Below the pieces are notes generated by a model. That model saw nothing but the letters and a program-made list of their open reading frames with translations. It did no database searches and was not told the DNA's origin. Position numbers and translations under genes: made by a program. Source: Pseudomonadota bacterium (GTDB lineage: Bacteria; Pseudomonadota; Alphaproteobacteria; UBA11222). From it: a stretch of 64,000 nucleotides of DNA. Location of the stretch: contig DAIOWE010000001.1 in the NCBI GenBank assembly GCA_036758605.1, positions 935 through 64,934 of the forward strand. The letters run 5' to 3'. Shown here piece after piece: positions 7,548 through 37,401 of this stretch; within the stretch, counting starts at the first letter, position 1, and every line of letters begins with the position of its first letter.

Positions 7548-7585
7548 AAAACTATGTGGGCGTTGGTACAAAGGAGTGCAAGAGA

Positions 7586-7951: not shown

Positions 7952-7965
7952 TACAGGTATCAAGT

Positions 7966-10025: not shown

Positions 10026-10045
10026 CTCATTCAAAATTATTTTCA

Positions 10046-10083
10046 CAAAAAAACACCCCAGGCTTATTGGGGTGTTTTTTTTG
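10046..10083. terminator. Bidirectional rho-independent terminator between convergent cheR and ctrA.
   Basis: AAAAAAACACCCCAGGCTTATTGGGGTGTTTTTTTT: 6-7 bp GC stem flanked by an A-run and a T-run. Confidence 0.6.
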
Positions 10084-10099
10084 CTTATTTGGAAATGTG

Positions 10100-10807
10100 T
10101 CAGGCAGCTTTTTCTTTGCTAGCAACGGGCGATTCAGAATCGCGAAGAACGTAGCCGCGCCCCCAAACAGTTTCGATATAATGTTCAGAGCCGGTTGCCG
10201 CCGCCAATTTCTTGCGGAGCTTGCATATAAAGACGTCGATGATCTTGAGTTCGGGTTCATCCATCCCGCCATAAAGATGATTAAGGAACATTTCCTTGGT
10301 CAGCGTCGTTCCCTTGCGAAGCGAAAGCAGTTCGAGCATCGCATATTCCTTGCCGGTCAGATGAACCCGATGGCCATCAACTTCGACGGTCTTGGCGTCC
10401 AGGTTCACGGTCAATTGCCCGGTTTTGATTACAGACTGGGCGTGGCCCTGTGATCTGCGGACAATCGCATTAATACGGGCGATCATTTCATCCTTATGAA
10501 ATGGCTTGGTCATAAAGTCGTCAGCGCCGATGCCAAGCCCCTGAACCTTGCTTTCCATATCGGACAGACCGGAAAGAATTAAAATAGGCGTGGAAACCTT
10601 TGCCTGTCGCAGTTTTTTCAGAACGTCAAAGCCGCTCATGTCGGGCAGATTCAAATCGAGAATGATGATATCGTAGTCATAGAGCTTGCCTAAATCCAGG
10701 CCCTCCTCCCCCAAATCGGTAGTGTATAAATTAAAACCGGCCTGGTTAAGCATAAGTTCAATGCCCTGAGCTGTTGCGCTATCGTCTTCAATTAGGAGAA
10801 CTCGCAT
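10100..10807 (-). CDS. ctrA: Cell-cycle / motility master response regulator CtrA (OmpR family).
   Basis: [20 protein letters not shown]…[33 protein letters not shown]…[53 protein letters not shown] is near-identical over long stretches to the remembered Caulobacter CtrA. Confidence 0.9.
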
Positions 10808-12913: not shown

Positions 12914-13807
12914 TCATATCAGGCCCCGTGGCGTCCGCGTTTGCAGTGACGCTGCAATCTGCTGAACCTGCTGGGCAGATTCACTTTGCGGATAACGCGC
13001 CAGAAGCGGTGCCTGCGCGCGGATCGCCTGGGTAACGTGCTTGTCCCGGATGATATAACCCGCCATTTTTGGGGTAAATTGCAGAAAATGTTCGCAGGCG
13101 CGATGTACAGCACCGAAAGTTTTTTCGGCCTGTGTCCTGCTGTCCGCCATATTCACAATAATTCGAATATCCAGTTCAGGGTGTGTCATTGCAAGAAATT
13201 TTATCATCGCATATGCATCGGTGATTGATGTGGGATCATCCGTTACGACGATCAGCGCCTTTCCGATGCGGGAAAATAAAGGCATCATGTGGCTGTTCAT
13301 TCCGGCAGCCAGGTCCACGATCAAATGATCATACTGGATGGCAGCCTTTATCAGGTCGCTGCACAATGTTTCAATCTGCCTGCGGCTCAAAGTGTCCAAT
13401 GCGCCGGAACCAGATCTTCCTGCCAGCACATCAAAGCCCATTGCGGCACGATGCGTGGATACGCTGCCGACGCTCGCGGGTAACGCTCCGCCCGAAAAAG
13501 CGGATATGGCGCCGGCGAAGCTGATTTTACCGGCCACGACACTTGCCAGGTCATGTATGGGGGACATGGCAAGCTGCACATCCACATTGGCCAATCCCAG
13601 GTCGCCATCTACCAGTAATACACGGTTCCCAAAACCGGCCAATGCCTGTGATAAAGTAATTGAAAACCAGGTTTTTCCGACGCCGCCTTTGCCGGATGCA
13701 ACAGCAATAAGATTGCTTTGCCGCGCCAATGCGCGCCTGCTGGAATTAATTTCTCCGTCGACAGATAATATTCTCGCGGGTGAGGTCAATACGGGTTCCT
13801 CCGTCAT
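12914..13807 (-). CDS. flhG: MinD/ParA-type ATPase FlhG (FleN/MotR-like flagellar number regulator).
   Basis: Deviant Walker A AVASGKGGVGKTWFS; …LLVDGDLGLANVDV…. Start is ATGA-coupled to the flhF stop. Confidence 0.8.
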   Translation of the reverse strand: MTEEPVLTSPARILSVDGEINSSRRALARQSNLIAVASGKGGVGKTWFSITLSQALAGFGNRVLLVDGDLGLANVDVQLAMSPIHDLASVVAGKISFAGAISAFSGGALPASVGSVSTHRAAMGFDVLAGRSGSGALDTLSRRQIETLCSDLIKAAIQYDHLIVDLAAGMNSHMMPLFSRIGKALIVVTDDPTSITDAYAMIKFLAMTHPELDIRIIVNMADSRTQAEKTFGAVHRACEHFLQFTPKMAGYIIRDKHVTQAIRAQAPLLARYPQSESAQQVQQIAASLQTRTPRGLI

Positions 13808-14796
13808 TGTGCGGCCTGCTCCAGTTCTAAAAATGATTCATGTTCTGCCGGATCCTCGAGCAAAAGGCGTGCTAGTGCGACCGGTGTTATTGAGGCCAGG
13901 CCATTCGCCACAAAAGGCGTAATGCTGACATGATGCAGTGTCATGGCTGCGGCCTCAAGTGCACCTAATATGCTTCCTAACCGTCTTGTTACATCCAGTT
14001 TTGTAACAATCATGCCACGGGCGCCAAGGCCGGAAAAAATGTTGACGATCTCACATGCTTCAACAGAATCGCCACCGGCAGGCAGCACCAGAACCGGATC
14101 GCAATCAACAGCCATGACAAGGTTTCTGAGAGACTTTAGCTCAGTCAAATTAAACGGAGACGTTCCGACAGTATCAATAATGCAATTTTTTATACTCTGC
14201 TTTGAATCTAATAAGGCGGCCAATTCCATGCCGTCGGCGGCCCGGTGCATCGGTACATTCATAGATCTTGCATAAGCTTCAAGCTGCTCTGCGCCGCCAG
14301 TACGGACCAGGTCAGTTGTAATCAGCATCGTCTCGTTACCTGCAAGAACCGATCGTGCGGCGAGTTTTGCAGCGGTAAGGGTTTTACCGGCGCCAGTTGG
14401 TCCAATTAATAAAATAGGCCGCACGGGATGTATTGGAATAGAAGCAAAATCGTAACGCAACTCCAGAGCCGCAGCCAGGGCCTGTACCGGATTACAGGCT
14501 GCCATTGTTCCCAGTGTTTCCAGTAGCATGGCGTTAATTGCTTGTGGTGCGCGATGAAAGGTTAGGGCGTTTTCTATACCGTCAAATGTGTCTTGATGTT
14601 TCCCATCTAAAAAGGGGGCCTGCATTTCCTGAAATTGCGGGTTTTCCGGAGAGGAATGTTCGACTGCTGCGCGTATGGAAACCTTGCCATTGCTTGTGCA
14701 CTCGCTACTCAGGATTATCGCATCAGGGCCTAGCGTCGCGCGCAATTCTGCCATTGCGGCTTCCATGGTTGCTGCGGTAATCGTTCTAAAGCGCAC
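13804..14796 (-). CDS. flhF: Flagellar biosynthesis SRP-type GTPase FlhF (GTG start).
   Basis: N-terminus MRFRTITAATMEAAMAELRATLGPDAIIL matches the FlhF B-domain start. G-domain LLIGPTGAGKTLTAAKLAA…DTVGTS. Confidence 0.85.
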   Translation of the reverse strand: MRFRTITAATMEAAMAELRATLGPDAIILSSECTSNGKVSIRAAVEHSSPENPQFQEMQAPFLDGKHQDTFDGIENALTFHRAPQAINAMLLETLGTMAACNPVQALAAALELRYDFASIPIHPVRPILLIGPTGAGKTLTAAKLAARSVLAGNETMLITTDLVRTGGAEQLEAYARSMNVPMHRAADGMELAALLDSKQSIKNCIIDTVGTSPFNLTELKSLRNLVMAVDCDPVLVLPAGGDSVEACEIVNIFSGLGARGMIVTKLDVTRRLGSILGALEAAAMTLHHVSITPFVANGLASITPVALARLLLEDPAEHESFLELEQAAQ

Positions 14797-14810
14797 TTTT
14801 TTGGTTTTCC

Positions 14811-16922
14811 CTATATTTGCCCAATGGTGCGGATTTTAGCTTGCGGATGGATTTCATTTTGAGAGACGACGCTCGTTTGGGGGCGGAAGCGTTCCACAAT
14901 CGAACGTACGAAAGGACGGATGAATGGGCTGCACAGCAGGGCAGGGACCTGTCCTGCCTCGGCGGCCTGATCAAATTTCAGACGCACTGCACCAATAAAT
15001 TCCTGCAACCGGCTTGGCTGCATCGCCAATTGCCGGTCATCACCCTGGCCAATAATTGATTCCGCAAAGATTTGTTCCCATTCTGGTGACAGGCTGATTA
15101 GCAGTACATATCCGCTGGGACCAATATTCTGATGGCATATCTGGCGCGCCAGCCGTGCACGGACATGTTCGTTGATGGCCCCGATATTCTGACTAAATCC
15201 AACTGCTTCAGAAATACCTTCCAGTATGGTAGGCAGGTCACGAATTGAAACGCGCTCGGCAAGAAGAAGTTGCAGTATGCGCTGAATACCCGACAGGGTG
15301 ATTTGTGACGGCGAAATATCATCCAGCAATTTTTGGTGTGCCGGTGGCAGATCATCCAGCAATTTCCGCGTCTCGCCATAGGAGAGCAATTCACGCATGT
15401 TTTGCTGTACGGTTTCTGTCAGATGGGTCGTAATCACCGTGGGCGGATCGACGACCGTATAGCCGCGGAACGAAGCTTCCTCGCGCAGGGATTCGTCAAT
15501 CCACATTGCCGGCATTCCAAATGTAGGCTCTTTTGTTTCCACACCCGGCAGATCAATTGGCGCGCCACGGGGGTCCATTACCAGCAAATGGCCAATTCTA
15601 AGTTCACCACTTCCGGATTCAACTTCCTTTACGCGGATAACATAGCCGTTGGCAGGAAGCTGAATATTATCCAGAATTCGCACAGAGGGCATGACAAACC
15701 CCATTTCCGATGCAATCTGTCTGCGTAACGCCTTAATCTGATCCGTCAACGGATGATTGCCTTGCTCATTGATAAGCGGAAGCAAGCCATAGCCAAGTTC
15801 AAGGCGTAAATCATCTATTGCGAGCGCCGTTTGAATGGGCTCGTCAGTTGTCGGTGTTTGCGCTGCCTTGATTTGCTCGTCTGCAATGGTTTCCAATGCC
15901 TCGCGTTTGCTTTTGGTGACGTACCATGCCAGCCAGCCAGAACCCACCGATAACACAAAGAAGGGAAAAAATGGCATTCCGGGAAGCAATCCCATAAGTC
16001 CGAGCAGGAACGAGGACAGGCCAAGCGCCTGCGGATAGCCCGAAAGCTGGGTGACCAATACCTTGTCGGCGGCGCCGCTTACACCGGCTTTTGAAACCAG
16101 CAAACCCGCTGCTGTCGAAACAATAAGAGCAGGAATTTGCGTTACCAGGCCATCGCCGACTGTCAGCGTGGTGTAGGAGCTTCCTGCCTCTGTGAGGCTA
16201 AGGCCTTTTTGTGCAACACCAATAATGATGCCGCCAATTACATTGATAAAGGTAATCATCAACCCTGCAATGGCGTCACCACGCACAAATTTGGCGGCGC
16301 CGTCCATTGCGCCAAAGAACGAGGATTCATCCTCCAGTTCTTTGCGGCGGAATTTCGCGGTGCTTTCATCTATCAAGCCCGCACTTAAATCGGCATCAAT
16401 AGCCATCTGTTTACCAGGCATCGCGTCCAAGCTAAAGCGTGCGGCAACTTCGGCAATGCGGCCGGAACCTTTTGTGATTACGACAAAGTTTACAATCATC
16501 AATATGGCGAACACGATAATGCCGATGACGAAGTTTCCCTCCATCACCAGATTGCCAAAAGCATGAATGACCTGACCGGCGGCTTCGGTTCCTGCATGTC
16601 CCTCGGCAAGAATTAATCTTGTGGAAGCGAGATTAAGTGACAAACGAAGCATTGTTGAAATCAGCAAAATAATTGGAAAAGCGCTGAAATCCAGTGGTTT
16701 TTCAATAAACAGCGACGTCATCAAAATTAGCACGGAGAATGTAATCGATAGTGTGAGCGCAAAATCCAGCAGCCATGCCGGAAGGGGTATAATCAAAACC
16801 ACCAGAATGCCGATAATACCCAACGCAATGCCAATATCGCCACGCATTGTGGCGAGACGCACGCTGGTCATCAGTCCGCCCAGGGTAAGACCGGTGACTG
16901 GAGATGCGGGGCTATCACTCAT
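14811..16922 (-). CDS. flhA: Flagellar export apparatus protein FlhA.
   Basis: 703 aa; N-terminal membrane domain (…FPIILLISTMLRLSLNLASTRLIL…) plus cytoplasmic FlhA_C domain. Confidence 0.95.
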   Translation of the reverse strand: MSDSPASPVTGLTLGGLMTSVRLATMRGDIGIALGIIGILVVLIIPLPAWLLDFALTLSITFSVLILMTSLFIEKPLDFSAFPIILLISTMLRLSLNLASTRLILAEGHAGTEAAGQVIHAFGNLVMEGNFVIGIIVFAILMIVNFVVITKGSGRIAEVAARFSLDAMPGKQMAIDADLSAGLIDESTAKFRRKELEDESSFFGAMDGAAKFVRGDAIAGLMITFINVIGGIIIGVAQKGLSLTEAGSSYTTLTVGDGLVTQIPALIVSTAAGLLVSKAGVSGAADKVLVTQLSGYPQALGLSSFLLGLMGLLPGMPFFPFFVLSVGSGWLAWYVTKSKREALETIADEQIKAAQTPTTDEPIQTALAIDDLRLELGYGLLPLINEQGNHPLTDQIKALRRQIASEMGFVMPSVRILDNIQLPANGYVIRVKEVESGSGELRIGHLLVMDPRGAPIDLPGVETKEPTFGMPAMWIDESLREEASFRGYTVVDPPTVITTHLTETVQQNMRELLSYGETRKLLDDLPPAHQKLLDDISPSQITLSGIQRILQLLLAERVSIRDLPTILEGISEAVGFSQNIGAINEHVRARLARQICHQNIGPSGYVLLISLSPEWEQIFAESIIGQGDDRQLAMQPSRLQEFIGAVRLKFDQAAEAGQVPALLCSPFIRPFVRSIVERFRPQTSVVSQNEIHPQAKIRTIGQI

Positions 16923-16964
16923 ATTATGTTTCTACCATGACGAATGGAACTGTGTATTTCCTCA

Positions 16965-18350
16965 TCATGCAGAAACACGATCCACGGAATCTCCGGCCGG
17001 GGCGGGAATATTTATCCCCGTATCACGGTACGCATTCAGCTTGTTACGCAACGTCCTGATGGATATGCCAAGTATGTTTGCCGCATGTGTGCGGTTTCCA
17101 AGGCAATGATTGAGCGTATTCAGGATTAAATCCTGCTCTACATCCGCGACAGTGCGTCCAACCATGCCGCGCACTGTGTCTTCAGCTGTGGATGCTGCGC
17201 GAGCCGCCGGTCCAGTAGCGATGGCAGCGTGCGCGGGATATTGCTGTGTTGACCCATCAGGCAGAACAATGGCTTCCGGTTCTATCTCACTCATCTGAGA
17301 AAGTAACAATGCGCGATGAATGGTGTTTTCCAATTCACGAACATTACCTCTCCAGGGGTGCGCCTGCAGCAGGTGGCGGCTCTTTTCAGAAATAGGTTTC
17401 TGGGGCAGCCCGTTTGACTTGGCATATTTTTCTACAAAATATTTAGCCAAGGCAATAATGTCGCCCGGCCGTGCCCGCAATGGCGGGATAGAAAGATTTA
17501 CAACATTCAAACGGTACAGCAAATCCTCACGGAAAGTGCCATTGCGCACCGCCTGCAACAAATCAACGTTTGATGTGGCGATAACCCGGATATTCACCTT
17601 GATAGGTTTGCCGCCGCCGACGCGGTCAATTTCACGTTCCTGTAATGCGCGAAGCAGTTTTGCCTGTAACCGCACATCCATTTCACTAATTTCATCAAGC
17701 AGGATCGTGCCGCCTTCGGCCTCTTCGAATTTACCGATGCGCCGCGCGATAGCACCCGTGAAAGCGCCTTTTTCATGCCCGAATAATTCTGATTCCAGCA
17801 GGTTTTCCGGAATGGCAGCGCAGTTAACTGAAATAAACGGCATATCCGACCGCTTGGATTTTCTATGTACATAGCGGGCCATTACTTCTTTGCCCGTGCC
17901 GGATTCGCCGGTTATCAGAATGCTGGCCTCGCTGGGCGCAACCTGATCCGCCATGCGCAAGACGGCGGCCATGGCTGCATCGGAATAAATCACCTTGTGT
18001 GTTTCATCAGAAACCGCCTCCAGTATTGCCGCGATAAGAACGGCATCTGGGGGCAGTGGAATATATTCCTTGGCGCCAGCGCGAATGGCATTTGCCGCTT
18101 GTTCGCTGTCCGCATTAATTCCACATGCCGCTACCGGAACATGAATATGTTCAGCATCAAGCTGTTTGATCAAACGTGCAATATCAAGATTGACATCAAC
18201 CATCAACAGATCGGCCCCACGGCCGTCACGTAGCGCAACGAGAGCATCATCTATATTGCCGGCAATAGATACTTTAGCTCCTTTTTCTATGGCTATTTTG
18301 GACGCGGCCCCCATCTCGCCATTCATATTTCCTATAATCAGTATACGCAT
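16965..18350 (-). CDS. flbD: Sigma54-dependent flagellar transcriptional activator FlbD (FleQ/FlrA class).
   Basis: REC-like N-terminus MRILIIGNMNGEM…GADLLMVDVNLDIA…HVPVAACGI…AGAKEYIPLPPD closely resembles Caulobacter FlbD. AAA+ domain GESGTGKEV…GAFTGA…, C-terminal HTH. Strong RBS AAGGAGAT. Confidence 0.85.
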   Translation of the reverse strand: MRILIIGNMNGEMGAASKIAIEKGAKVSIAGNIDDALVALRDGRGADLLMVDVNLDIARLIKQLDAEHIHVPVAACGINADSEQAANAIRAGAKEYIPLPPDAVLIAAILEAVSDETHKVIYSDAAMAAVLRMADQVAPSEASILITGESGTGKEVMARYVHRKSKRSDMPFISVNCAAIPENLLESELFGHEKGAFTGAIARRIGKFEEAEGGTILLDEISEMDVRLQAKLLRALQEREIDRVGGGKPIKVNIRVIATSNVDLLQAVRNGTFREDLLYRLNVVNLSIPPLRARPGDIIALAKYFVEKYAKSNGLPQKPISEKSRHLLQAHPWRGNVRELENTIHRALLLSQMSEIEPEAIVLPDGSTQQYPAHAAIATGPAARAASTAEDTVRGMVGRTVADVEQDLILNTLNHCLGNRTHAANILGISIRTLRNKLNAYRDTGINIPAPAGDSVDRVSA

Positions 18351-21285: not shown

Positions 21286-23037
21286 TTATTCTTTGTCATG
21301 GAGCCAGGACCGCAATATCGCTATTGCTTCGTCTGGATGATTGCCAACGACTTCGCCAACTTTTTTGACCGATGACGCCTTTACCTGTCCGTCTATTTTT
21401 GCAATGTCGATCATAGAGTCGAGTTGTTGTTCTTTGGACTGAAGGATCTGAAGCATCGCCCCCGGTCCTTCCATCATGCCTGGCTGACTGGCCGTCGCAG
21501 ACTGATTTCCTGATGAAGAAGGTCCGGTTATTTGCGGCACTCCTCCTGCGCCGCCAGCAAGCGTCGGCTGCATCTGTCCGCCTGCATAAGGCCCAACTTC
21601 AAGCAGGCGCGTGATTAATGGCCGGAATACAAACAGGGCGGTCAGCAATGCAACGAGGCCCAGAATTGACGTTTCTGCGAAGCGCATCCAATCGCCGGTT
21701 TCGATACCCAGGAATGGCGCTTCACCCGCATCTTGCGACTCCAGTTCCATTTCAGAAAAACGCAAATTGGCGATTCGCACCTGATCACCGCGTTTTTCAT
21801 CATAGCCAATGGCGGTTCGCACCAGTGATTCTATCTGTTTTAATTCATCTTCACTGCGCGGGGTATATGTCCGGGCGCCATCGGGCTGTGTAGTCATGGC
21901 GCCATTTACCAGAACGGCGACGGATATCCGTTCAATTGCGCCTGCTTCTTTTGTCTTTACCCGTGTGGTTCTTGATATTTCAAAATTGGATGTTTCTTCC
22001 GTGCGCCTATCGCGAAGTTTGTCGTCGGCCTTTGCGCCAATGGTGTCGGCGGCACCCGGTAATTCGCTGGCGACGGACACACCTTCGGATTTTGGTTTTG
22101 CATCTTCAGACTCTTCCTCGACCGCACTGGTTGACCGTATTACCCGGCCATCGGGATCAAAAATTTCAGCATTTTCGGTAATGCGATCAAGATTTATCTG
22201 TGCAGTTACCTGTACGCGGATATTTTCCGGGCCAACTACACTGCCGACCAGGGTTTGTATCCGTTCCGATATAAGGGTTTCGTATTCGGTATTTTTGTCC
22301 TGAATATTTGCAACATTGCCTTTGTCGAAGTCGTCTTCAACGCCTCGCGCCAGCAATTTTCCCTTGTCATCAATCAAGGCGACCCGTGACGGGCTTAACC
22401 CCGGAACGGCGGATGCAGCAAGATGCAGTATGGCGTTGACTTGCGCGCTGCTAAGCTGTCCGCGCGATTTGATTACTATTGAAGCTGTCGGTTCCTGCTT
22501 GTTTCCCGATGCGAATAATTCACGCTTGGGAATAACCAGATGCACACGCGCATTCGAAATGCTGGAAATCGACCGGATGGTGCGGGCCAATTCACCTTCC
22601 ATTGCCCGTAACTGATTTATGTTCTGGGCAAAGCTGGTTTGCCCCAGCATATCTGATTTGTCGAATATCTCATATCCTACGGTCCCGCCTGCAGGAATTC
22701 CCTGTTCTGCAAGCGCCATCCGTAATCGCCGCGCCTGGTCCTGGGGCACCAAAATCGTGCTGCCATCGCCCTGCAATTGATAGGGGATATTCATCGCTTC
22801 CAGCTTGCTTAATATTTCGCCGGAATCCGTCATATCAAGATCGGCATAGAGCAGGGACATGGGCTGCGTTGTGAATTGCATCGTCATATATGTGAAAAAC
22901 GCAATAAGCCCAGCCGTGACAACGCCCATCGCCATCAGGCGGCCTGCGCCCAGCTTTCGTAAAAATTCTGTAAATCCGTTCAAATCCAGGTATCCGTCAC
23001 ACAGTAATCTTGTCCGCCAGGCGCCATCCTCTGGCAT
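21286..23037 (-). CDS. fliF: Flagellar MS-ring protein FliF.
   Basis: 583 aa, two TM segments flanking a large periplasmic domain; FliF family pattern. Confidence 0.9.
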
Positions 23038-23172: not shown

Positions 23173-23460
23173 TTATTCTGGATTTTCACGATAATCCTGT
23201 ATCCGTGTCGTCCGCAGCCCCGCCAGACCGTGGCGCTCCAATGCGCTTTGCCATGCAAGGAACTCCTCAATGGTCAGAGTGTAGCGTTCGCAGGCGTCGT
23301 GCAGGCTCAGTAATCCGCCCCGAACAGCAGCTACAACTTCAGCCTTGCGACGAATGACCCAGCGTTTGGTGTTGGGTGGCGGCAGATCATCGAGCGAAAT
23401 CGGTGTTCCGTGTGGTCCCGCCACACTTAGCGATGTAATGGTCTGACTTTGGTTCAGCAT
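23173..23460 (-). CDS. DUF1153-family small protein (95 aa) inside the flagellar cluster.
   Basis: …KRWVIRRKAEVVAAVRGGLLSLHDACERYTLTIEEFLAWQ… matches the DUF1153 pattern. Confidence 0.55.
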   Translation of the reverse strand: MLNQSQTITSLSVAGPHGTPISLDDLPPPNTKRWVIRRKAEVVAAVRGGLLSLHDACERYTLTIEEFLAWQSALERHGLAGLRTTRIQDYRENPE

Positions 23461-23674: not shown

Positions 23675-25006
23675 TTAGCGTTTGATACGGATCAGCTCAT
23701 CGAGCATTTCATCGGCTGTCGTGATGATTTTGGAGTTGGCCGAATATGCCCGTTGCGCTGTAATCAGATTTGTAAATTCTTCCGCCAGCTCGACGGTCGA
23801 TGCTTCCAGCACGTTAGGGTCTATTCGTCCCGCCGTGCCCCGGGTGGCTTCCAGCAGGGTAAAGGTGCCCGAAGTATCCGATTGGCCATAAGAATTACCG
23901 TTTCGCGCCGCCAATCCGTTTGGATTAGGAAACACAGCCAGCGGAATTTTGTAGATCTTCTGTCGGATGCCGTTTTCAAACGTCGCGGTTACAAACCCTT
24001 CATTGCTGACTTCCAGCCCTAGCAGGTTGCCAAACACCGCGCCGTTAATAGAGGCGGCCGCCAGAACCGAGTTGGTGGCGAACTGGGTAATACCGTCTGG
24101 TCGGCCCACCGTGCCGATATCCAGGGCGATGCTTGATGTGCCAAGACCGGTGATCGCCGTGTCCCATGCAATCGTCATCGGTGATGGGGTTGGAAATGTG
24201 GTGGCAGCATCAAGTGTGCCGTCAGTCTGGAACACCAGATTACCAGCGGCGACACGGCCCGCCGGATGGCTTGCAACCAGCACATCGGTAACCGGCGTAA
24301 CATAGGCTTCCGCCGCCCAGGTATTGGCTGCGGTTTTGATAAAGCCAAAGTTCATTGTGCGGCTGCCGCCCTGGCTGTCATAGAACTGTATGCTGCGGAC
24401 AAAATCGGGGGTGGTGATTGTGCCATCGGCGATCTGTCCCACAGCATAGGTGCCCGCGGCAGGATGCACGGGCGTGCTGGCTTTCAGGTTCGCCTGCAAG
24501 GACATTTGAGTCGTCGGATCGGCGGTGCCTGTCAGGCTGCTGATGTCGATAGGTCTAAGGGCGGATAGGTCGCTCAGGTTCGTAGGCAGATTGCCCAGAT
24601 TGTCGATGGGCCAGCCAAACAGATAATTGCCGGCAGAATTTTGCAGAAACCCCTGATCATTGGTGCGGAAAGCGCCCGCGCGGGTGAAATGTGTTTCGCC
24701 TTGCCCGGCTGTCGCCGAGGAAGAGGTTACAAAAAAACCCTTGCCGGTAATCGCCAGATCGGTGGGTGAGCTTGAAGCCTGCAACAGGCCCTGCTTGTCG
24801 ATATTCTGGTTTGGGGTGATCTGTACGCCGCCTGGTGAATAGGAGTGGTCGCCAGCCGGCGACGTAACCAGGGTGGAAAAGCGCGCTTTCGTGTCCTTGT
24901 AACCGGTTGTGTTCAGGTTCGCGATATTATCAGAAATAATACCAAGCGCGCTGGCGTTCGCCGTTAATCCGGATACGCCGCTAAATAGTGCACCATAAAT
25001 ACTCAT
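23675..25006 (-). CDS. flgE: Flagellar hook protein FlgE.
   Basis: MSIYGALFSGVSGLTANASALGIISDNIANLNTTGYK… and a conserved C-terminal rod/hook domain. RBS AAGAGGAAAA. Confidence 0.9.
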   Translation of the reverse strand: MSIYGALFSGVSGLTANASALGIISDNIANLNTTGYKDTKARFSTLVTSPAGDHSYSPGGVQITPNQNIDKQGLLQASSSPTDLAITGKGFFVTSSSATAGQGETHFTRAGAFRTNDQGFLQNSAGNYLFGWPIDNLGNLPTNLSDLSALRPIDISSLTGTADPTTQMSLQANLKASTPVHPAAGTYAVGQIADGTITTPDFVRSIQFYDSQGGSRTMNFGFIKTAANTWAAEAYVTPVTDVLVASHPAGRVAAGNLVFQTDGTLDAATTFPTPSPMTIAWDTAITGLGTSSIALDIGTVGRPDGITQFATNSVLAAASINGAVFGNLLGLEVSNEGFVTATFENGIRQKIYKIPLAVFPNPNGLAARNGNSYGQSDTSGTFTLLEATRGTAGRIDPNVLEASTVELAEEFTNLITAQRAYSANSKIITTADEMLDELIRIKR

Positions 25007-25125
25007 TTGATTTTCCTCTTGCGGGCGTCACTTGTTCGAAGCGCCGACCGGCTTCCTGTTAAGGCGCATCATTCATTACGCCGATTGAGATTTGAATGAC
25101 GCCCGTATGGACGCCATTGATTTTT

Positions 25126-26295
25126 TTACGATCCACCTGTTGTGGCTGTGGCTGTTTTTGCCGGTTCCGTCACGGTGAGAACATCACTGAGATTGATCTT
25201 CACGCCACCGACTACCAAAACGGGCTGATTGCCTGATGAGTCAACACTGGTCACCGTGCCATTAGTGAACACCTTGCTGCTGACGGGAACATCGTTCTTG
25301 TCAACCGCCGTTATGCTGATGCTGTACACACCATCGGGCTGCTGATCGCCGTTTTTATCCACGCCATTCCACGTCAGGGTATTCAGACCGGCTTCCGGTG
25401 TTACATTCTGTTCAAGCATCACTTTGCCCGCGCTATCCTTCAGTGTGACGACAGTGCTGGCGGCCTTTGGATCAACTTCATAGGTCCAGTTTGCGGTTCC
25501 ATTGGCAAGGTTCGTGTTTGTATTTATTGTTCTGATTTCACGCCCGATGTAATCGAGTGGCGCGCCCGCACTGCTGCTCCTGGTTACAGACAGCACATCC
25601 TTGAGAGGGACTTTGACGCTACCAATAAAGAGCGATGGCTCATCGCCAGAAATCTCCACATTGGTAACGGTGCCGGTTGTGAAAACCTTTGCCGTGACGG
25701 GTTTTTTGTTGAGATCAAGTGCCGAAACGCTAAGACTGTAGACACCATCAGGGAATGGATTGCCGTTTTTATCTTTGCCGTTCCATGAGAAATTATGCGT
25801 GCCAGCGCCTGTTACGCCTTCTACAGTAAATACGGCATTGCCTTTTGCGTCCAGGACAGTGACGGCACTGCTTGCTGCTTTCGGATCAACCTCGTAGGAC
25901 CAGTTCGCCATTCCGTTAGACAGATTGGTACTACTGTTGGCCATTCTTACTTCGCGACCAATGTAATTAAATGCGGCGCTAGATGTATTGCCGCTGGTAA
26001 GCGCAATCAGCTTTTCCAGATTTTTGTTAGACTGAATTGACTGTTCAACCGACGTAAACTGCACCAATTGGCTGGTAAATTCCTTTGAATCCATAGGTTC
26101 CAGCGGATCCTGGTTTTGCAACTGGGTAGTCAGCAATGTCAAGAAGCTGTCAAAATCATTTGCCAGTTTATTCAGTGCATTACCAGAAGCCGTAATAACG
26201 GGTGCAGGCGTCGAAGTTGAAGCCGCAGACGCTGCTGCCGTCGAGGGATTTTTTGGATCCGAAATTATTGCCGGGGACAGCCCGTTTATAGCCAT
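25126..26295 (-). CDS. flgD: Hook assembly/capping protein FlgD, unusually long (389 aa) with two tandem copies of the C-terminal Ig-like region.
   Basis: N-terminal FlgD domain …FLTLLTTQLQNQDPLEPMDSKEFTSQLVQFTSVEQ…, then two ~138-aa repeats each starting YIGREV/IR. Confidence 0.85.
   Translation of the reverse strand: MAINGLSPAIISDPKNPSTAAASAASTSTPAPVITASGNALNKLANDFDSFLTLLTTQLQNQDPLEPMDSKEFTSQLVQFTSVEQSIQSNKNLEKLIALTSGNTSSAAFNYIGREVRMANSSTNLSNGMANWSYEVDPKAASSAVTVLDAKGNAVFTVEGVTGAGTHNFSWNGKDKNGNPFPDGVYSLSVSALDLNKKPVTAKVFTTGTVTNVEISGDEPSLFIGSVKVPLKDVLSVTRSSSAGAPLDYIGREIRTINTNTNLANGTANWTYEVDPKAASTVVTLKDSAGKVMLEQNVTPEAGLNTLTWNGVDKNGDQQPDGVYSISITAVDKNDVPVSSKVFTNGTVTSVDSSGNQPVLVVGGVKINLSDVLTVTEPAKTATATTGGS
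25138..25965 (-). repeat. Internal tandem duplication within flgD (2 x ~414 nt, diverged).
   Basis: aa 111-248 and 249-386 align (…NWSYEVDPKAASSAVTV… / …NWTYEVDPKAASTVVTL…; …NGKDKNGNPFPDGVYSLSVSA… / …NGVDKNGDQQPDGVYSISITA…); the DNA similarity is visible by eye. Confidence 0.7.
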
Positions 26296-26306
26296 AATCG
26301 TTTTTC

Positions 26307-28322
26307 CTAAATTTGGATATTAATGGCGCGGTTCGCAAAACGCGCTGCTATAGGCGCAACAGTGTCATCCCAGTCATCTGACAAAGGGTCGCCGCCTCTA
26401 TCAGGCCCGTTATAGGCTAAGTCAGCATGCTGCTGATCCTGCCGCCCGCCCTTGAGCGAGAAGCTCAGTGAATTACTGTCGGTCTTCAGGCCAGCTTCCA
26501 TCAGGCTTCGTTCCAGAGCGCGTGAATCACGTTGCAGCAAATCCAGTGTTTCCGGTCTTTCTACCGCTATGACGGCACTCAGTTTTCCTTCTGCGGAAAC
26601 TTCCATGCGCACATCCACACGGCCCAGTTCTGGCGGATCAAGCCGCAACTGAAAGCGGTTCGCTACCGTGTCAGTATGCTGCGCAATATGAATGGCGATA
26701 TCGCGTATCGGCGGGCTTACATGCTGGGGCGGCGTTTCAGCGCGCGGTAGTACCGGCCCGGCGCCGGAGCGAAGGGCCTCCGGCTTGTCCATCATAACAA
26801 TATTGCCCGTTTCGCTCTGCGTCAGATCCGTGCCGACGAATTGCTGTAAACCATCGGGGGCCGCGGCCAAAAGCCCTTCTGAAGCCTGGACTAATGCCTG
26901 CGTAAAACCTTGCCCATCCAAAATTGTTTGCGGCTGTGATGTGATTATTTGTGCTTGCACGGCCGTTGTAACTGGCGGCGTTGCAGCCGACACGGCGACA
27001 CGGCCTGCATTCGAATCCGGCAAGGGCTGAATGGGCAACTTATCCTGTTGGCGCACCAGCTGCGTTTCCGCAGGAATATTGCTGCCGGTTGCTGGTTTCA
27101 TATTCAGGGGCGCGGCTAATTCTGCTGATAAAACCTGCGCTGCTGCTTCAGAAGCCGCCGGATTAGCCCCGTGCTGTGGCGTTGTATTTTTACGCGGGGA
27201 TGTTGGCGTTAAATTCTGCTGCCGACTGTCAAGCTGCGGTTCCAACGCAGCAGCAGATTCGACTGGAATTTGCGGATCCAAGGGTTGCTGTAACGCCACA
27301 GTATCAACGGTGCCGGTCAATATTTCGGGTTTCTTTTTTTGTGTAGTGTTCTGGTCAACGGTTTTGGAGTTTGACGCGCCCTGGATGGCAATTGGCGGCG
27401 GGTTTGTTACTGCCTGTTGTGGTGTAATGGATTGGTTAATAGAAGCATGTGCGGAATCTGGGGCAATTTTCAGGGCGCTGGAAATTATTTCCCTGGAATC
27501 TGTATACAGATTACTATCTTCTGCTTGAGCCGTGATGAGCGTTTGTTTGTGTAAAGGTTCCTGTGCGGGAGCTATCGTGTTCAAGGGAACATTGTCAGTA
27601 ACCGGCAAGGATATGGCTGCGGCGCTATTCAGCAACTTATCGGTCAGGGACACCGTTTTATTTTCCACGGATGTGGACATCGAATCAGTATGATTTTCCT
27701 GTGATGTTTGAAAAATATTAATTTTCATGTCTGAGGTTGCGGCCAGCGCAGGCGCAGATGAAGTAGATGCTATGTTTTCTGTTTCTGCATCAGATGGCCT
27801 GGTTACGATAGTGGTAACTTCCGAGTCTGGCAGCAGGTTGATTTTTGGATACATAATTCCGGATTTTGTATCCGCTGCAATATTCTGATCCGCTGTTTCA
27901 GGTTTTTTTTCATTTCCGGAAGACGTAGTTAGGGTGCCAGACGAAAGCAGGCTGTTTTTCGGCGTTTGCCCGTTATTTGACGCAGCTTCGTCTGCTGAAA
28001 TTACAGAAGAAAGGGCTTTCGTCACAATGGCAGGCGGCAAAACGGTTAGCAGCGGGTTCGTGAATATATTTGAAAAATCAGTAACGGCGCTGGTTCTGTC
28101 GTCCATGTTCTCTGGTGCAGGGGTAAGCCCCAGAATAATGTCTAATAGGTTTCCGAATTCTGCAATAACCTTGGGGTTGTCTTGATGGGGGCTGTCAGGC
28201 GTGACGCCTGCCGACAAACCGGTAGTGCCAGTGCTTGCAGGAACAGTGCGGGATGCAATAGAAGCGGCCGTATTTGTTATTCCCTGGCCGGGCAGTGCAA
28301 ATATATTCTGTAACAGTTCCAT
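26307..28322 (-). CDS. fliK: Flagellar hook-length control protein FliK (671 aa, long Pro/Thr/Ser/Ala-rich central region).
   Basis: C-terminal Flg_hook domain …RFQLRLDPPELGRVDVRMEVSAEGKLSAVIAVERPETLDLLQRDSRALERSL…. Confidence 0.75.
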   Translation of the reverse strand: MELLQNIFALPGQGITNTAASIASRTVPASTGTTGLSAGVTPDSPHQDNPKVIAEFGNLLDIILGLTPAPENMDDRTSAVTDFSNIFTNPLLTVLPPAIVTKALSSVISADEAASNNGQTPKNSLLSSGTLTTSSGNEKKPETADQNIAADTKSGIMYPKINLLPDSEVTTIVTRPSDAETENIASTSSAPALAATSDMKINIFQTSQENHTDSMSTSVENKTVSLTDKLLNSAAAISLPVTDNVPLNTIAPAQEPLHKQTLITAQAEDSNLYTDSREIISSALKIAPDSAHASINQSITPQQAVTNPPPIAIQGASNSKTVDQNTTQKKKPEILTGTVDTVALQQPLDPQIPVESAAALEPQLDSRQQNLTPTSPRKNTTPQHGANPAASEAAAQVLSAELAAPLNMKPATGSNIPAETQLVRQQDKLPIQPLPDSNAGRVAVSAATPPVTTAVQAQIITSQPQTILDGQGFTQALVQASEGLLAAAPDGLQQFVGTDLTQSETGNIVMMDKPEALRSGAGPVLPRAETPPQHVSPPIRDIAIHIAQHTDTVANRFQLRLDPPELGRVDVRMEVSAEGKLSAVIAVERPETLDLLQRDSRALERSLMEAGLKTDSNSLSFSLKGGRQDQQHADLAYNGPDRGGDPLSDDWDDTVAPIAARFANRAINIQI

Positions 28323-33051: not shown

Positions 33052-34143
33052 ATGGTCATTTGGCGCGTGTCTGAAACGGGACAAAATCCGGATTTGAAGC
33101 AAGGCCGCATCACAGCGTTTCTGCGCTGGTGGGGTGCTGAATTGCGAACGCTCGTCCCGCCCCGGCTGGCTGTACTGTCCGGGCTTGCCCGCGAAGTGAT
33201 AGTGCTGGTTCCAGAGGGAAATGATTTTACCGTGCGGCGATGTGTTGGGGGCGCCGCGCAAATGCTAGGACTTTTATCACAGGCCGGAAAGGGTGACCAG
33301 GTGGCGCGCTATCGCGCAACAGGCGCCGAATGTGTTCTGCGCATTCCATCGGCGCAGGGGTTACGGCGGCAGGCGCCCATAGCGGTTTCTGCATTGCCAC
33401 GGGGCTATGATGCCGTTGCAGGTGAAATTGAACGGCAAACCCCATTTGCGCCAGATCAGGTCTATCTGGGCTATCACGTAGAAGATACGATTGATCCTCG
33501 TGGCAGGGTGATGGCGCATCTGGCGCTGGTTCCATGCGCCAGCACGGATATGGTGCTGCAAACATTGTCCAGATCAGGGATTGTTCCGGATCGGATTACA
33601 CTGGCCGATGATGCGAACGAAAATTCAGCTGGCGATACCGTTCACATTCTTAGGCCACTGCGCAAAGAACCAGCGCCTAAAATTTTGCTGGCGGTTGTAT
33701 CCATCTTGTTGCTGGTTTCACTGGTATCGCCTTTCTGGCGAAATTCAGTGGCGTTATCAGATGTTGAAAAGGCACTTGCTCAAGCGCGGCAGGCCGCATT
33801 GCCGGACAATCCAGGGAATGGGGCAGGGGATGCGCAATCACAGATGACCTATCTGGTGGAATTGCGTGGCCAGAGACCGCCTGTTACAGCATTGTTGAAT
33901 GCAATCAGCACCGCACTTCCCGATACGGCGCATCTGGCGCAGTTTGAACTTTCCGGCCGCACCCTTGCATTACAGGGCGTAGCCCATGCGGCGCCAGACT
34001 TGATTGCGCCACTGGAGGCGCTCGATCAGGTGGCAAAGGTGGAATTCACTGCGCCCACTTTGCGTGACCCGGTGCAGGGGCTGGAGCAATTTCAGTTGAC
34101 CATTCAGTTGCGCGCAGCATCAGTGGCGGAGCAGACAGAATGA
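33052..34143 (+). CDS. GspL-like inner-membrane platform protein (cytoplasmic domain, one TM, periplasmic domain).
   Basis: 363 aa; single TM (ILLAVVSILLLVSLVSPFW) about two thirds of the way in; GspL/PilM-N-like architecture. ATGA-coupled to the next gene. Confidence 0.45.
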   Translation: MVIWRVSETGQNPDLKQGRITAFLRWWGAELRTLVPPRLAVLSGLAREVIVLVPEGNDFTVRRCVGGAAQMLGLLSQAGKGDQVARYRATGAECVLRIPSAQGLRRQAPIAVSALPRGYDAVAGEIERQTPFAPDQVYLGYHVEDTIDPRGRVMAHLALVPCASTDMVLQTLSRSGIVPDRITLADDANENSAGDTVHILRPLRKEPAPKILLAVVSILLLVSLVSPFWRNSVALSDVEKALAQARQAALPDNPGNGAGDAQSQMTYLVELRGQRPPVTALLNAISTALPDTAHLAQFELSGRTLALQGVAHAAPDLIAPLEALDQVAKVEFTAPTLRDPVQGLEQFQLTIQLRAASVAEQTE

Positions 34144-34694
34144 GCGCGCTTGAAAATATGCGCGGGCGCGCAGTGGCGTTATTGTTATTATTGGGCGCAA
34201 TCATGCTGGTATGGTTTGGCGCGGCGCATCCTTATCTGGAAGCGCTTTCCAATACCAGGCACAGGCTGGAGGCGGCCTCGGCGCAATTGCAAATTTATCA
34301 GCGCGCCGTTGCGCGCGGAAAAGTGGCCCATGCCGGAAAAAATGATGCGCTGGATGCATTGTTGCTGCCAGGGGAAAGCGCCGCCGCCGCCGCTGCTTAT
34401 TTGCAGCAACGCATGGGCGAGATAGCGGCGGACAGCGGGGCATTGTTATTAAGCTTCGAATTATTGCCGGTGACAAATACTGATGACGCACCATTGAAAG
34501 CCGCCATGGGCCGTATCCGGGTTACGGCGAATACACAGTCCCTGCGCGCACTTTTGCATGCAGTGGAAAGTCACCGGCCGCTGCTATTGCTGGATAATCT
34601 CTTTGTACGGGCGCGCAGCGATCAGGATAGTGTGCCGGGCGGTCATCTGGACGTGCAGATGGATGTTTCGGGCTTTCGTCGGGCAGCAGAATGA
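34140..34694 (+). CDS. GspM/PilO-like bitopic membrane protein.
   Basis: 184 aa; N-terminal TM (AVALLLLLGAIMLVWFGAA) then a periplasmic domain; by position and size corresponds to GspM. ATGA-coupled. Confidence 0.4.
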   Translation: MSALENMRGRAVALLLLLGAIMLVWFGAAHPYLEALSNTRHRLEAASAQLQIYQRAVARGKVAHAGKNDALDALLLPGESAAAAAAYLQQRMGEIAADSGALLLSFELLPVTNTDDAPLKAAMGRIRVTANTQSLRALLHAVESHRPLLLLDNLFVRARSDQDSVPGGHLDVQMDVSGFRRAAE

Positions 34695-35164
34695 TCATGC
34701 GCAAGATTTTGCTGACGGCGGGCGCCGTGTTGACCGGGATCGCAATTATACCCTGGTTGCGCGATCCCATGGTCACAGACAGCGGGCCGGGGATAGCCAT
34801 AAATGCGCCGCAGGCCCCGTCAGATTTCAATGATCCGGGGCCGCTTGAGAAATATGACGAAATCGTCCAGCGTCCGGTTTTTGTGGCCACCCGGCGTCCG
34901 GTTGCGGCCCCGGCCTTGAATCCTGGCCATACAGGCGAGGTCATGCTGCTGGGCATTTATCCGGTGGTAGGGGTGGTGATTGCGGGGCAACAGCGCCTGG
35001 TCTTGATCCGCAAGGCCGCGGGTGACACAGTGAGCCGGATAGCGCAGGGGGCAGAACTGGACGGCTGGACTTTAACAGAAGTGTCGCGCGCGCGGCTGGT
35101 CCTGGAAAAGGCCGGAAACCGCAAGGAAGTATCCCTGCAGAATAATGGCGGTAGTGCAGATTGA
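34691..35164 (+). CDS. GspC/PilP-like secretin-interacting protein.
   Basis: 157 aa; N-terminal TM then a beta-rich segment …EVMLLGIYPVVGVVIAGQQRLVLIRKAAGDTVSRIAQGAELDGWTLTEVSRARLVLEK… resembling the HR/PilP domain. Confidence 0.4.
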   Translation: MIMRKILLTAGAVLTGIAIIPWLRDPMVTDSGPGIAINAPQAPSDFNDPGPLEKYDEIVQRPVFVATRRPVAAPALNPGHTGEVMLLGIYPVVGVVIAGQQRLVLIRKAAGDTVSRIAQGAELDGWTLTEVSRARLVLEKAGNRKEVSLQNNGGSAD

Positions 35165-37401
35165 ACAGGCTCATGAGTATTTTTAAGCGGCGGCATCTAT
35201 CAGGGCCTGATGATTTTAGGTTGATCCCTTGCCCTTCCCGTATCGCTGTCATTACCCGGCTTGTCCGCGCAATGACAATGCAGGGGGATTCAATCCAATA
35301 TCATCCCACTCTAAATGCAGCATTTCTATTTTTAGCGATGTTTGTTGCGCTGGCCGGTTGTGCGGATCAGCGCCAGCGTTTGGCTGTACCCGTGCCCCAG
35401 CCCCCGGTTGCGAAAGCTCCCCAGAATCCATCCCCTGTATCGGCCGCTGCGACACCCTTGAACGCTCCGGCAAAGCCCATTGAGGAATATTATCCCGCAC
35501 CCGGCGGTTCAGCGCCCGATGCTACGCCGCGCACGGCCACGGCTGCGGGGGATATCAGCCTGAATTTTCAGAACGCCAGCATTGCGGAAATTGCGGGCGT
35601 CATCCTGGGCGACCTGCTGAGGGTTCCATTCACCATTGATGCAGGCGTACAGGGGAGTGCGTCGCTGAATACCGGCATGCCGGTTAACCGCGACGCGCTG
35701 ATTCCGGTGCTGGAAGCGATCCTGTCCAGCATGAATGCCGTGTTGATCAATCAGGGCGAGGTATATCGTATCAAATCCGCCATCGGCATGGATTTACCGG
35801 GCGCGCCGGTGGGCGCTGGATTGCCGTCTGGTACGGGTGCGGGTTTCGAAGTGTTTGCACTGTCTTATATTGGCGCCGCTGAGATGGCGAAGCTAATCGC
35901 GCCGCTAGTGCCCGAAGGCCGCCCGGTAAATGTCGATGCACAGCGCAATCTGCTGATCGTCGGCGGCACTGGGCCGGAACGTCAGTCGGTGCGTGAAACC
36001 ATTGCTCTGTTTGATGTGAACGCCATGGCCGATCAGTCGGTGTTGCTGATCAGCCTTGAGCATGTCGATGTCCGAACCATTTTGTTTGAGTTGGAGAATA
36101 TTTTCGGCGATACCGGAAAGGGACCGCTTGCGGGCCTTGTGCGCTTTGTACCGGTCGAGCGATTGAACGCGCTGATGGTGCTGTCTTCACAGCAGAACTA
36201 TTTAAGTCAGGCGCGCGACTGGATCCGGCGGCTGGACCGTACGCGCCGCGCCGATGAACAGACGGTGTTTGTGTATTTCATGCAGCATGGCTCCGCTCCC
36301 GATATGGTGAAAACCCTACAGGAAATTTTTACCAGCGCATCGGGCGCGCGCGAAACGGCGCCGGATGCAACCCAAACCGGTACAGATGTGGAGATTGCAT
36401 TGCCAATCCCATCGGGAAATTCTGCGGGCATTGCCCCGCCCCCCCTGCGCATCACGGCGGACCGGTCCAAAAACGCACTGCTGATTCAGGGCAATGAACG
36501 CCAGTATCAGCAGGTCAAGGACGTACTGGGAAAACTGGACATCGCCCCGCTGCAAGTGATGATTGAGGCGCAAATCGTAGAGGTCAGCCTGGGCGACACC
36601 CTACGCTATGGGGTGCAATATTTCCTGGATACGGGCGGACTGAAAATTGATGAAGACAGCATCACCCAACTGACATCGGGCGCGTCGGCCACAGGCATTG
36701 CGCCAAACCTGTCATCGCCACCGGGCGGCGGCTTTGCGTTTTCGCTATCGGGCAGGGCAGGGCAGAACCGGGTCGTGCTGGATGCGCTGTCGGATTTAAC
36801 CAGCGTCAACATGATTTCCGCGCCGACACTTTTCGTGCTGGACAATCAGGTCGCGCGGTTGCGTGTCGGCGATGAAGTTCCGATCATCACACAAACTGCC
36901 GACGGGCTGACAAATGATTCCCGTACGCTGAATACGGTGCAATATCGCAGTACCGGCGTATTGCTGGAAGTAACCCCGCAGGTAAATTCCGGCGGCATGG
37001 TAACCCTGCAAATCGTGCAGGAAGTCAGCGCGGCGGTAAACACCCAAAGCTCGGGCAGCTCTACCATCAATTCTCCCACCATTCAGCAGCGCAGCTTCCT
37101 TAGCACTGTGGGCGTGCGCGATGGCGAAACCATTCTGCTGGGCGGCCTGATCCGTGAACAGGCCTCAAAAGGCCGCAGTGGCATCCCCATCCTGCATCAG
37201 GTGCCGGTGCTGGGCAATCTGTTCGGGCGCACCAATAATTCGGCGCAACGCACCGAGCTGCTGGTGATGATTACCCCGCGCGTTGTGCGTGACACACAGC
37301 AAAACCGTGATGTCACCATGACCATCCGCGAAAAATATCAGGGGATATTGTTGCTCCAGGAAAAAGGCGCGGAACGTCCTCGAAGAGTGTATGGGGAATA
37401 A
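35161..37401 (+). CDS. Secretin (GspD/PilQ family), probably a lipoprotein. Start uncertain: TTG 35161 coupled to the upstream stop, or ATG 35173 / 35272.
   Basis: Lipobox …FLAMFVALAGC… near the N-terminus; N0/N1-like domains (…ISLNFQNASIAEIAGVILGDLLRVPFTID…); C-terminal secretin domain (…VLLEVTPQVNSGGMVTLQIVQEVS…ILLGGLIREQ…IPILHQVPVLGNLF…LLVMITPRVV). Confidence 0.85.
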   Translation: MNRLMSIFKRRHLSGPDDFRLIPCPSRIAVITRLVRAMTMQGDSIQYHPTLNAAFLFLAMFVALAGCADQRQRLAVPVPQPPVAKAPQNPSPVSAAATPLNAPAKPIEEYYPAPGGSAPDATPRTATAAGDISLNFQNASIAEIAGVILGDLLRVPFTIDAGVQGSASLNTGMPVNRDALIPVLEAILSSMNAVLINQGEVYRIKSAIGMDLPGAPVGAGLPSGTGAGFEVFALSYIGAAEMAKLIAPLVPEGRPVNVDAQRNLLIVGGTGPERQSVRETIALFDVNAMADQSVLLISLEHVDVRTILFELENIFGDTGKGPLAGLVRFVPVERLNALMVLSSQQNYLSQARDWIRRLDRTRRADEQTVFVYFMQHGSAPDMVKTLQEIFTSASGARETAPDATQTGTDVEIALPIPSGNSAGIAPPPLRITADRSKNALLIQGNERQYQQVKDVLGKLDIAPLQVMIEAQIVEVSLGDTLRYGVQYFLDTGGLKIDEDSITQLTSGASATGIAPNLSSPPGGGFAFSLSGRAGQNRVVLDALSDLTSVNMISAPTLFVLDNQVARLRVGDEVPIITQTADGLTNDSRTLNTVQYRSTGVLLEVTPQVNSGGMVTLQIVQEVSAAVNTQSSGSSTINSPTIQQRSFLSTVGVRDGETILLGGLIREQASKGRSGIPILHQVPVLGNLFGRTNNSAQRTELLVMITPRVVRDTQQNRDVTMTIREKYQGILLLQEKGAERPRRVYGE

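Follow-up and report, generated by a model that had tools for sequence, protein, structure and literature searches.

The FlgD cap is a pentamer in which N-terminal hairpins insert among the subunits of the rod or hook, with the C-terminal domains arranged in a petal ring measuring about 90 Å (PMC8595650). In Salmonella, the N-terminal region of FlgD is essential and by itself complements weakly, the C-terminal domain (described as strands β1–β12) improves efficiency, and the role of this petal domain has been termed unclear in structural work on the hook cap (PMC8595650). Salmonella FlgD without its C-terminus is still exported, so the protein carries no C-terminal export signal (PMC10936197); docking to FlhB uses a gate-recognition motif, FLTLL, at residues 36–40 (PMC8983047).

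The solved structures of the canonical cap protein, from Salmonella enterica (232 aa; 7EHA, 7BHQ, 7EH9), P. aeruginosa (3OSV) and X. campestris (3C12), have one C-terminal module each. The FlgD proteins of Campylobacter jejuni (294 aa) and Helicobacter pylori (4ZZF, 4ZZK) exceed the enteric type in length, as does the protein described here. In the solved H. pylori structures the chains have 146 residues, the size of a single module. To our knowledge, the extra length of the C. jejuni and H. pylori proteins is not a second Tudor/Ig module. Matsunami et al. speculated that a longer FlgD serves the extra domains of a larger FlgE (PMC8595650).

The window analysed here is a stretch of 64,000 nucleotides from a contig of an uncultured alphaproteobacterium, and it encodes an FlgD that shares with the canonical cap protein the N-terminal domain, an identical FLTLL motif, a predicted hairpin and stalk, the 12-stranded Tudor/Fn-III-like module and the flanking fliK and flgE genes. 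It differs in having two such modules in tandem, so that a pentamer would carry 10 petals rather than five. A literature search for tandem FlgD C-terminal modules found no description; a paper on 'long repeats' that mentions FlgD_ig was considered as a precedent and set aside, as it concerns a protease. Having found no paper on it, we regard the tandem-module FlgD as a previously undescribed architectural variant of a well-known protein and not as a new kind of system.

Results

The flgD gene and its surroundings

The flgD gene (25126..26295, minus strand) is an uninterrupted frame of 389 codons followed by a stop. Pfam places the FlgD N-terminal domain (PF03963) once, at residues 27–94 (73.9 bits against a cut-off of 27), and C-terminal to it two stretches each of FlgD_ig (E = 7.5e-27) and FLgD_tudor (E = 2.1e-11), together with weak matches to CHU_C and DUF2271. 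Salmonella FlgD (7BHQ) matches the protein in phmmer with E = 1.1e-16, and searches of the PDB, whether by sequence or by fold, have FlgD as their best match. The N-terminal region (residues 1–110; 25966..26295, minus strand), which aligns to residues 10–110 of Salmonella FlgD, consists of a disordered start, a helical hairpin and a stalk and is the export and capping part of the protein. Within it, F51-L-T-L-L55 (26131..26145, minus strand) is identical to the Salmonella gate-recognition motif, with F51, L52, L54 and L55 invariant in 40 two-module homologues, and docking to FlhB is predicted.

By its N-terminal domain, its gate-recognition motif, its C-terminal Tudor/Fn-III hybrid domain (present twice) and its location among hook genes, the protein is a member of the FlgD family. 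A canonical single-module FlgD has one C-terminal module and a length of about 140–250 aa, which does not describe this protein, and it is filed here as an architectural variant of FlgD. We define two-module FlgD as the class with the N-terminal domain and two complete in-register modules, both under purifying selection, and the protein belongs to this class.

The gene lies in the order fliK-flgD-flgE inside a flagellar cluster, and the same synteny is seen in the compared loci L081–L092. Immediately upstream is fliK (671 aa; 26307..28322, minus strand), with the Pfam domain Flg_hook at residues 550–628; immediately downstream is flgE (443 aa, with domains D0-D1-D2 by Pfam; 23675..25006, minus strand), whose product is the substrate of the cap. 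The flgK and flgL genes are on the opposite strand from fliK-flgD-flgE. Downstream of flgE are a DUF1153 gene, fliF, fliG, a 237-aa open reading frame in the position of fliH (no Pfam match), fliN and motA, and farther along the cluster are a sigma-54 activator, flhA, an SRP54-type GTPase (flhF-like) and a MinD/ParA-type ATPase (flhG-like). No second flgD was found in the window, and an Rfam scan of the window returned no matches. The nearest species-representative genome is the MAG JBMOMW01 ('Betzabe_MAG060'), whose FlgD is 96% identical.

Two diverged copies of the C-terminal module

An earlier note on this DNA had remarked on the unusual length of FlgD and proposed an internal tandem duplication within one gene. 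The length is indeed unusual, as one-module relatives have about 215–250 aa, and the duplication is borne out by self-alignment, domain scan, structure prediction with fold search, and two-module orthologues. Residues 111–248 (25552..25965) and 249–386 (25138..25551), which the note had taken for diverged tandem copies, align without a gap and are identical at 71 of 138 positions (51%; 51–55% across comparisons), with a BLOSUM62 local score of 383 against 34.7 ± 6.5 (maximum 61) for 500 shuffles. Each of the motifs listed in the note, YIGRE(V/I)R, NW(S/T)YEVDPKAAS, WNG(K/V)DKNG, PDGVYS(L/I)S and VFT(T/N)GTVT, is found in both copies, and two of its proposed checks, a domain search for two matches and a structure prediction, gave two stretches of each C-terminal Pfam domain and two complete 12-stranded modules (see below). 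The note had named two outcomes that would have spoken against a duplication, a self-alignment without a significant repeat and a frameshift that splits the frame into two genes; the repeat is highly significant, and the frame has neither frameshift nor internal stop.

Two of its statements hold in part. The duplication was said to be visible in the DNA, and there is a diagonal at offset 414 (57.7% identity against 25 ± 2.9% at other offsets, z ~11), but a DNA repeat finder gave no in-register flgD repeat, only two chance matches with spacings of 598 and 530 nt, and the longest exact in-register run is 12 nt. Identity between the copies is 64%, 72% and 36% at the first, second and third codon positions; because the signal comes from the first two positions and the third is near saturation, the duplication is real and old, and barely a DNA repeat. 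The copies had also been described as Ig/Fn-like modules. There are two C-terminal modules, but what was copied goes beyond the Ig/Fn part: it is the complete Tudor + Ig hybrid, in which an Ig/Fn-III-like domain is inserted into a Tudor domain, together with about 10 tail residues. The stretch between the modules (residues 239–248, RSSSAGAPLD; 25552..25581, minus strand) resembles the low-complexity tail that closes FlgD (residues 377–389, EPAKTATATTGGS, and stop; 25126..25167, minus strand) and is probably the leftover of the ancestral C-terminal tail.

Predicted structure

A model of FlgD was built with AlphaFold2 on an alignment of 40 two-module homologues. Helices at residues 36–60 and 70–101 match the hairpin and stalk seen in the solved cap structure, and they are followed by two complete Tudor/Ig (Fn-III-like) petal modules of 12 β-strands, both with a pLDDT of about 90: R1 (residues 111–238; 25582..25965, minus strand), the copy nearer to canonical FlgD, and R2 (residues 249–376; 25168..25551, minus strand), the more diverged copy. 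The strand count of each matches the β1–β12 of the Salmonella C-terminal domain. The flexible linker (residues 239–244) and the C-terminal tail have a pLDDT below 50, and as the pTM is 0.40, the orientation of R1 relative to R2 is undefined in the AlphaFold2 monomer. The top matches of a Foldseek search against the PDB are all FlgD: 7BHQ, 7EHA, 7EH9, 4ZZF, 3OSV (TM 0.79) and 3C12 (TM 0.76).

Selection on both copies and their age

FlgD orthologues from 96% down to 62% identity are 385–396 aa long and all have two modules. Rates were estimated by the Nei-Gojobori method in four comparisons with dS between 0.2 and 1.2. The dN/dS ratio is about 0–0.07 for the N-terminal core (residues 36–110), 0.05–0.08 for R1 and 0.09–0.11 for R2; it is higher for the linker and tail in the more diverged comparisons (linker 0.20–0.67 there). 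The linker also varies in length between clades, and the tail is fast-evolving. These ratios indicate that both modules are under strong purifying selection, R2 being slightly more relaxed. R1 is also closer to the canonical protein: identity to the single-module P0033 is 56% (over the N-terminus and R1) against 37% for R2. Within the clade, the R1 and R2 sequences form separate orthologue groups with bootstrap values of 94% and 97%; as these groups are supported clade-wide, the duplication is older than a radiation that has brought FliF and FlgK down to about 70% identity.

Two-module FlgD in other lineages

Two-module FlgD is a minority but recurrent architecture. A first database search gave 50 two-module and 93 one-module proteins; an exhaustive search of 50%-identity representatives gave, in its best 150 hits, 29 proteins with two full modules and three with three partial ones; and 8 of the 80 best species-representative loci are two-module, including Haematospirillum sp. 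H4485, Micavibrio and several MAGs. A two-module FlgD (WP_259278503.1) is also encoded by an isolate, Pedomonas mirosovicensis (Sphingomonadales). The Pedomonas, Haematospirillum and Micavibrio MAG proteins (362–396 aa) have the same N-terminal domain and two complete modules, and are 32–41% identical to the FlgD described here. Such homologues carry the database label 'FlgD immunoglobulin-like domain containing protein', and an architecture hidden under the generic name of an annotation pipeline is now flagged. Large extracellular FlgD_ig (PF13860) repeat proteins such as P0185 and P0230 share the Ig-like fold family and the tandem arrangement; they differ in that the Ig part alone is repeated, without the FlgD N-terminal domain or Tudor, and in being non-flagellar.

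In the more distant two-module proteins, R1 and R2 group by lineage, suggesting separate duplications. Between clades, R2–R2 identity is 19–36%, never above the R1–R2 identity within a protein (35–49%) and not clearly above the R2–R1 cross-identity. A bootstrapped four-point test preferred the arrangement (R1x,R2x | R1y,R2y) in 95–100% of replicates for most pairs of clades; this does not hold for groups C and D, perhaps products of a single duplication event, or for comparisons with the long-branched L033, where the value falls to 79–95%. Neighbour-joining bootstraps for the within-lineage R1/R2 groupings are 50–84%. The simplest reading of these trees would be at least five independent duplications in lineages of Alphaproteobacteria. 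An alternative would be gene conversion between R1 and R2 after the lineages had diverged, and the distance methods used here (neighbour-joining, quartets) cannot separate it from repeated duplication.

The more distant two-module homologues mostly lie beside an enlarged FlgE, Pedomonas being an exception. Outside Pedomonas and the clade of the present protein, all two-module loci with an adjacent flgE have an FlgE of 582–741 aa, with insertions in or around D2. Four of seven two-module lineages have an FlgE of at least 550 aa, compared with 5 of the 41 loci with one module (Fisher p = 0.017, Mann–Whitney p = 0.035), a comparison of few lineages in which kinship is ignored. This tendency is in line with the speculation of Matsunami et al. 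(PMC8595650). In the present clade FlgE is of ordinary size (443–454 aa), as it is in Pedomonas (439 aa), and an extra module for an enlarged FlgE was rejected as the explanation here; the rationale of extra FlgE domains offered for C. jejuni and H. pylori is likewise not directly applicable to a locus whose FlgE has an ordinary 443 aa.

A one-module relative with a discordant flgD-flgE tract

The loci L083 and L084 encode a FlgD with one module (P0027, 248 aa) and are gene-for-gene syntenic with the window, with neighbours of the same sizes (FlgK 709, FliK 677 and FlgE 443 aa). By FlgL, FlgK, FliK, DUF1153, FliF and FliG, and by nucleotide identity of the flanks, L083 is the closest of the relatives compared, closer than the two-module L081 and much closer than the two-module L082. 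Over a contiguous tract (~26250..23900) that covers all of flgD and flgE through D2, the identity of L083 is 10–17 points below that of L081. The N-terminal core of the L083 FlgD is 81% identical, against 93–94% for L081 and L082, and its FlgE has 60 private substitutions, mostly in D2, against 2–17 in the others. A similar but weaker discordance of this tract, flgE included, is seen in L085 (group A2).

The pattern in L083 would be best explained by replacement of the flgD-flgE cassette through recombination. A simple deletion of R2 is unlikely, as the disagreement with the flanks takes in the N-terminal core and flgE as well, in one contiguous tract. Unequal crossing-over was rejected too: the L083 module is no R1/R2 hybrid, being R1-like over its full length (57–59% identical to R1 against 45–47% to R2). 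The locus L091 combines one module with an Ala/Lys-rich tail, and FlgK identity is no more than 62%; the position of this locus as an outgroup suggests that the one-module state may be ancestral for the family. The joint change of FlgE D2 and module number is weak evidence of co-adaptation, since adjacent flgD and flgE would be transferred together anyway and D2 is hypervariable even among two-module lineages (in L086 and L087, D2 is 76–77% identical against 96% for the rest of the protein). As the flagellar neighbours of L083 are near-identical to those in the window, a flagellum of this type can do without the second module.

Discussion

A possible two-tier cap

We are highly confident that the FlgD encoded here is real and functional and that selection acts on both of its modules. 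Judging from the conservation of the N-terminal helices, the protein would form a pentameric cap at the tip of the rod or hook and promote the polymerisation of FlgE. It is plausible that the second module changes the geometry of the cap or the polymerisation of the hook, as the earlier note had proposed. In the arrangement that we put forward, FlgD would be exported and would assemble as it does in Salmonella, its N-terminal helices building the pentameric hook cap and R1 providing the usual ring of five petals. R2 would hang from the free C-terminus of R1 by the flexible linker of about 10 residues and form a further tier of five petals, placed distally or peripherally, so that each cap would have 10 modules; the chamber that holds and folds exported FlgE ahead of its insertion into the hook would thereby become larger or deeper. 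An addition at the C-terminus would be tolerated because there is no C-terminal export signal and the C-terminus is not buried in the axial structure. An old tandem duplication of the petal module, with both copies kept by selection and a two-tier cap, is in our view the best explanation as a whole, and we give it about an even chance of being right. We are more tentative about the two-tier geometry as such and about a part in the handling of FlgE, which we put at somewhat less than an even chance.

R2 might instead be a tolerated passenger that adds nothing to capping, a harmless extension whose constraint reflects the avoidance of misfolding or of clogging of the export channel. The one-module L083, with otherwise near-identical flagellar genes, would fit such a passenger, as would the weak complementation by the Salmonella N-terminal region alone, which makes the C-terminal domain only an efficiency factor (PMC8595650), and the fact that R2 is somewhat more relaxed than R1 and farther from canonical FlgD. 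Against this, a dN/dS of about 0.1 has been held over divergences at which synonymous sites are saturated, R2 has not decayed by truncation or frameshift in about 50 two-module homologues, and what appears to be repeated independent origin is hard to square with neutrality; we consider a passenger improbable. A role outside the cell can also be imagined. FlgD is released into the medium once the hook is complete, and Ig-like folds are common in extracellular proteins, so that R2, once shed, could for example mediate adhesion or act as a decoy or signal; it is attached by a flexible linker, the weak CHU_C and DUF2271 matches would suit such a role, and many FlgD_ig-type copies occur in large non-flagellar proteins (25 stretches in P0185, 11 in P0230). 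R2 is, however, no Ig domain borrowed from an extracellular protein: it copies the whole Tudor + Ig module and is related most closely to R1 within the same chain, and neither a binding motif, nor a partner gene, nor any sign of a non-flagellar function was found at the locus, which leaves this role very improbable.

Nothing except the unusual length speaks for an artefact, either a duplication made during assembly or adjacent genes fused by a sequencing error or frameshift. An assembly artefact, from which near-identical copies would be expected, is ruled out by a DNA identity of just 58% between the copies and by their nearly saturated third positions, and R2 could not be a separate flgD gene because it has no N-terminal FlgD domain of its own. 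The frame is continuous, the same architecture (385–396 aa) recurs in independently assembled contigs from many samples, and the two-module form is also found in the GenBank MAG with 96% identity and in the Pedomonas isolate genome; the chance of an artefact of either kind is negligible.

Setting these alternatives beside the two-tier cap, we return to the latter. Duplication of a domain in an accessory protein is in itself little surprise; recurrence, selection and near relatives with one module add interest. With two petals maintained by selection, FlgD would demonstrate that the cap can vary in geometry. What looks like a repeated origin, taken with the tendency to an enlarged FlgE elsewhere, suggests that the cap is tuned to the hook subunit through the number of its petal modules. 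A broader claim can be built on this: that module number is an evolvable and repeatedly selected parameter of the cap, with at least five independent duplications, a two-tier cap that alters the confinement and folding of FlgE, and one- and two-module alleles circulating as flgD-flgE cassettes. In this full form we think it doubtful; were it true, near-isogenic natural variants would make the role of the FlgD C-terminal domain directly testable. Two-petal FlgD recurs across lineages and coexists with one-petal alleles in near-identical loci, which gives natural comparison pairs; these include the cultured Pedomonas mirosovicensis and Haematospirillum, in which the role of the petal domain in hook assembly could be tested.

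The neighbouring FliK

The earlier note had also set the duplication beside an unusually long FliK. The length of 671 aa is confirmed, but the implied tie to the duplication is unsupported. Among alphaproteobacterial neighbours (median 536 aa, 90th percentile 681 aa), the protein lies at about the 88th percentile; FliK of the one-module L083 has 677 aa, and FliK in two-module loci elsewhere has 478–558 aa.

Possible exchange and divergence within the flgD-flgE tract

The phylogeny of the flgD-flgE tract (~23900-26250 in the window, compared with positions 6001-8198 of L083, a close syntenic relative with a one-module flgD, and with the group A2 relative L085) disagrees with that of both flanks in close relatives. 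Outside ~23900-26250 L083 is the nearest relative of the window, whereas across this contiguous tract it falls 10-17 points lower. The discordance of the tract in L083 and L085 suggests that related lineages swap flgD-flgE cassettes through recombination.

Within FlgE (gene at 23675-25006) the D2 domain (~aa 160-330) is hypervariable among close relatives (L086, L087, L083 and L090), with an identity of 51-77% compared with 86-96% for the remainder of the protein. The length of the protein varies as well, from 443 aa in the window to 453-454 aa in L086 and L087. One possible cause of the D2 hypervariability is diversifying selection acting where the surface of the hook is exposed. In L014, a locus from an alphaproteobacterial MAG, two tandem flgE paralogues (7022-8869 and 8901-10700, encoding 615 and 599 aa) are found immediately downstream of a two-module flgD.

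FliK (26307-28322) is very poorly conserved except for its C-terminal Flg_hook domain; the overall identity is just 36-47% among relatives whose FliG proteins are 90-96% identical. Despite this, the length of FliK is steady at 671-697 aa in the same relatives.

Other FlgD architectures

The range of FlgD architectures is wider than the one-module and two-module forms, as seen in the representative homologues P0210 (454 aa), P0211 (406 aa), P0252 (408 aa), P0171 (485 aa) and P0247 (444 aa). Some of these match the module profile three times, each match being partial, and the size of the unit (~95 aa) suggests that the Ig part alone is repeated. Others in this set have two modules followed by ~60-110 additional C-terminal residues. 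The one-module FlgD P0026 (L091:6001-6819, 272 aa), from an outgroup lineage of the window's family, ends in a ~35-residue Ala/Lys/Glu-rich tail (…PKTPAELAAEAALAEANAAKKAAAAEARLNPTN) that is probably helical and is an alternative route to a longer FlgD C-terminus.

Neighbouring genes

Between flgE and fliF lies a gene (23173-23460) for a 95 aa protein that Pfam assigns to DUF1153, with an additional weak, sub-threshold match to the HTH_28 helix-turn-helix family. The gene is kept at this position in all syntenic loci examined, including Pedomonas (an isolate lineage with a two-module FlgD), and its product, 94-97% identical among close relatives, is a small conserved flagellar-cluster protein. 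The FliF ORF as listed (21286-23037) encodes 583 aa, compared with 561-573 aa in syntenic relatives; the true start may lie downstream of its first ATG.

The stretches 12914-18350 and 33052-37401 together take in further genes of the flagellar cluster and a separate cluster with secretin and PilN-like genes, located just past mnmA. Among the flagellar genes are those for a GTPase of the SRP54 type (flhF-like), for a MinD/ParA ATPase (flhG-like) and for a sigma-54 activator, a combination typical of polar flagellum regulation. An Rfam scan of the entire 64-kb window found no family at threshold.
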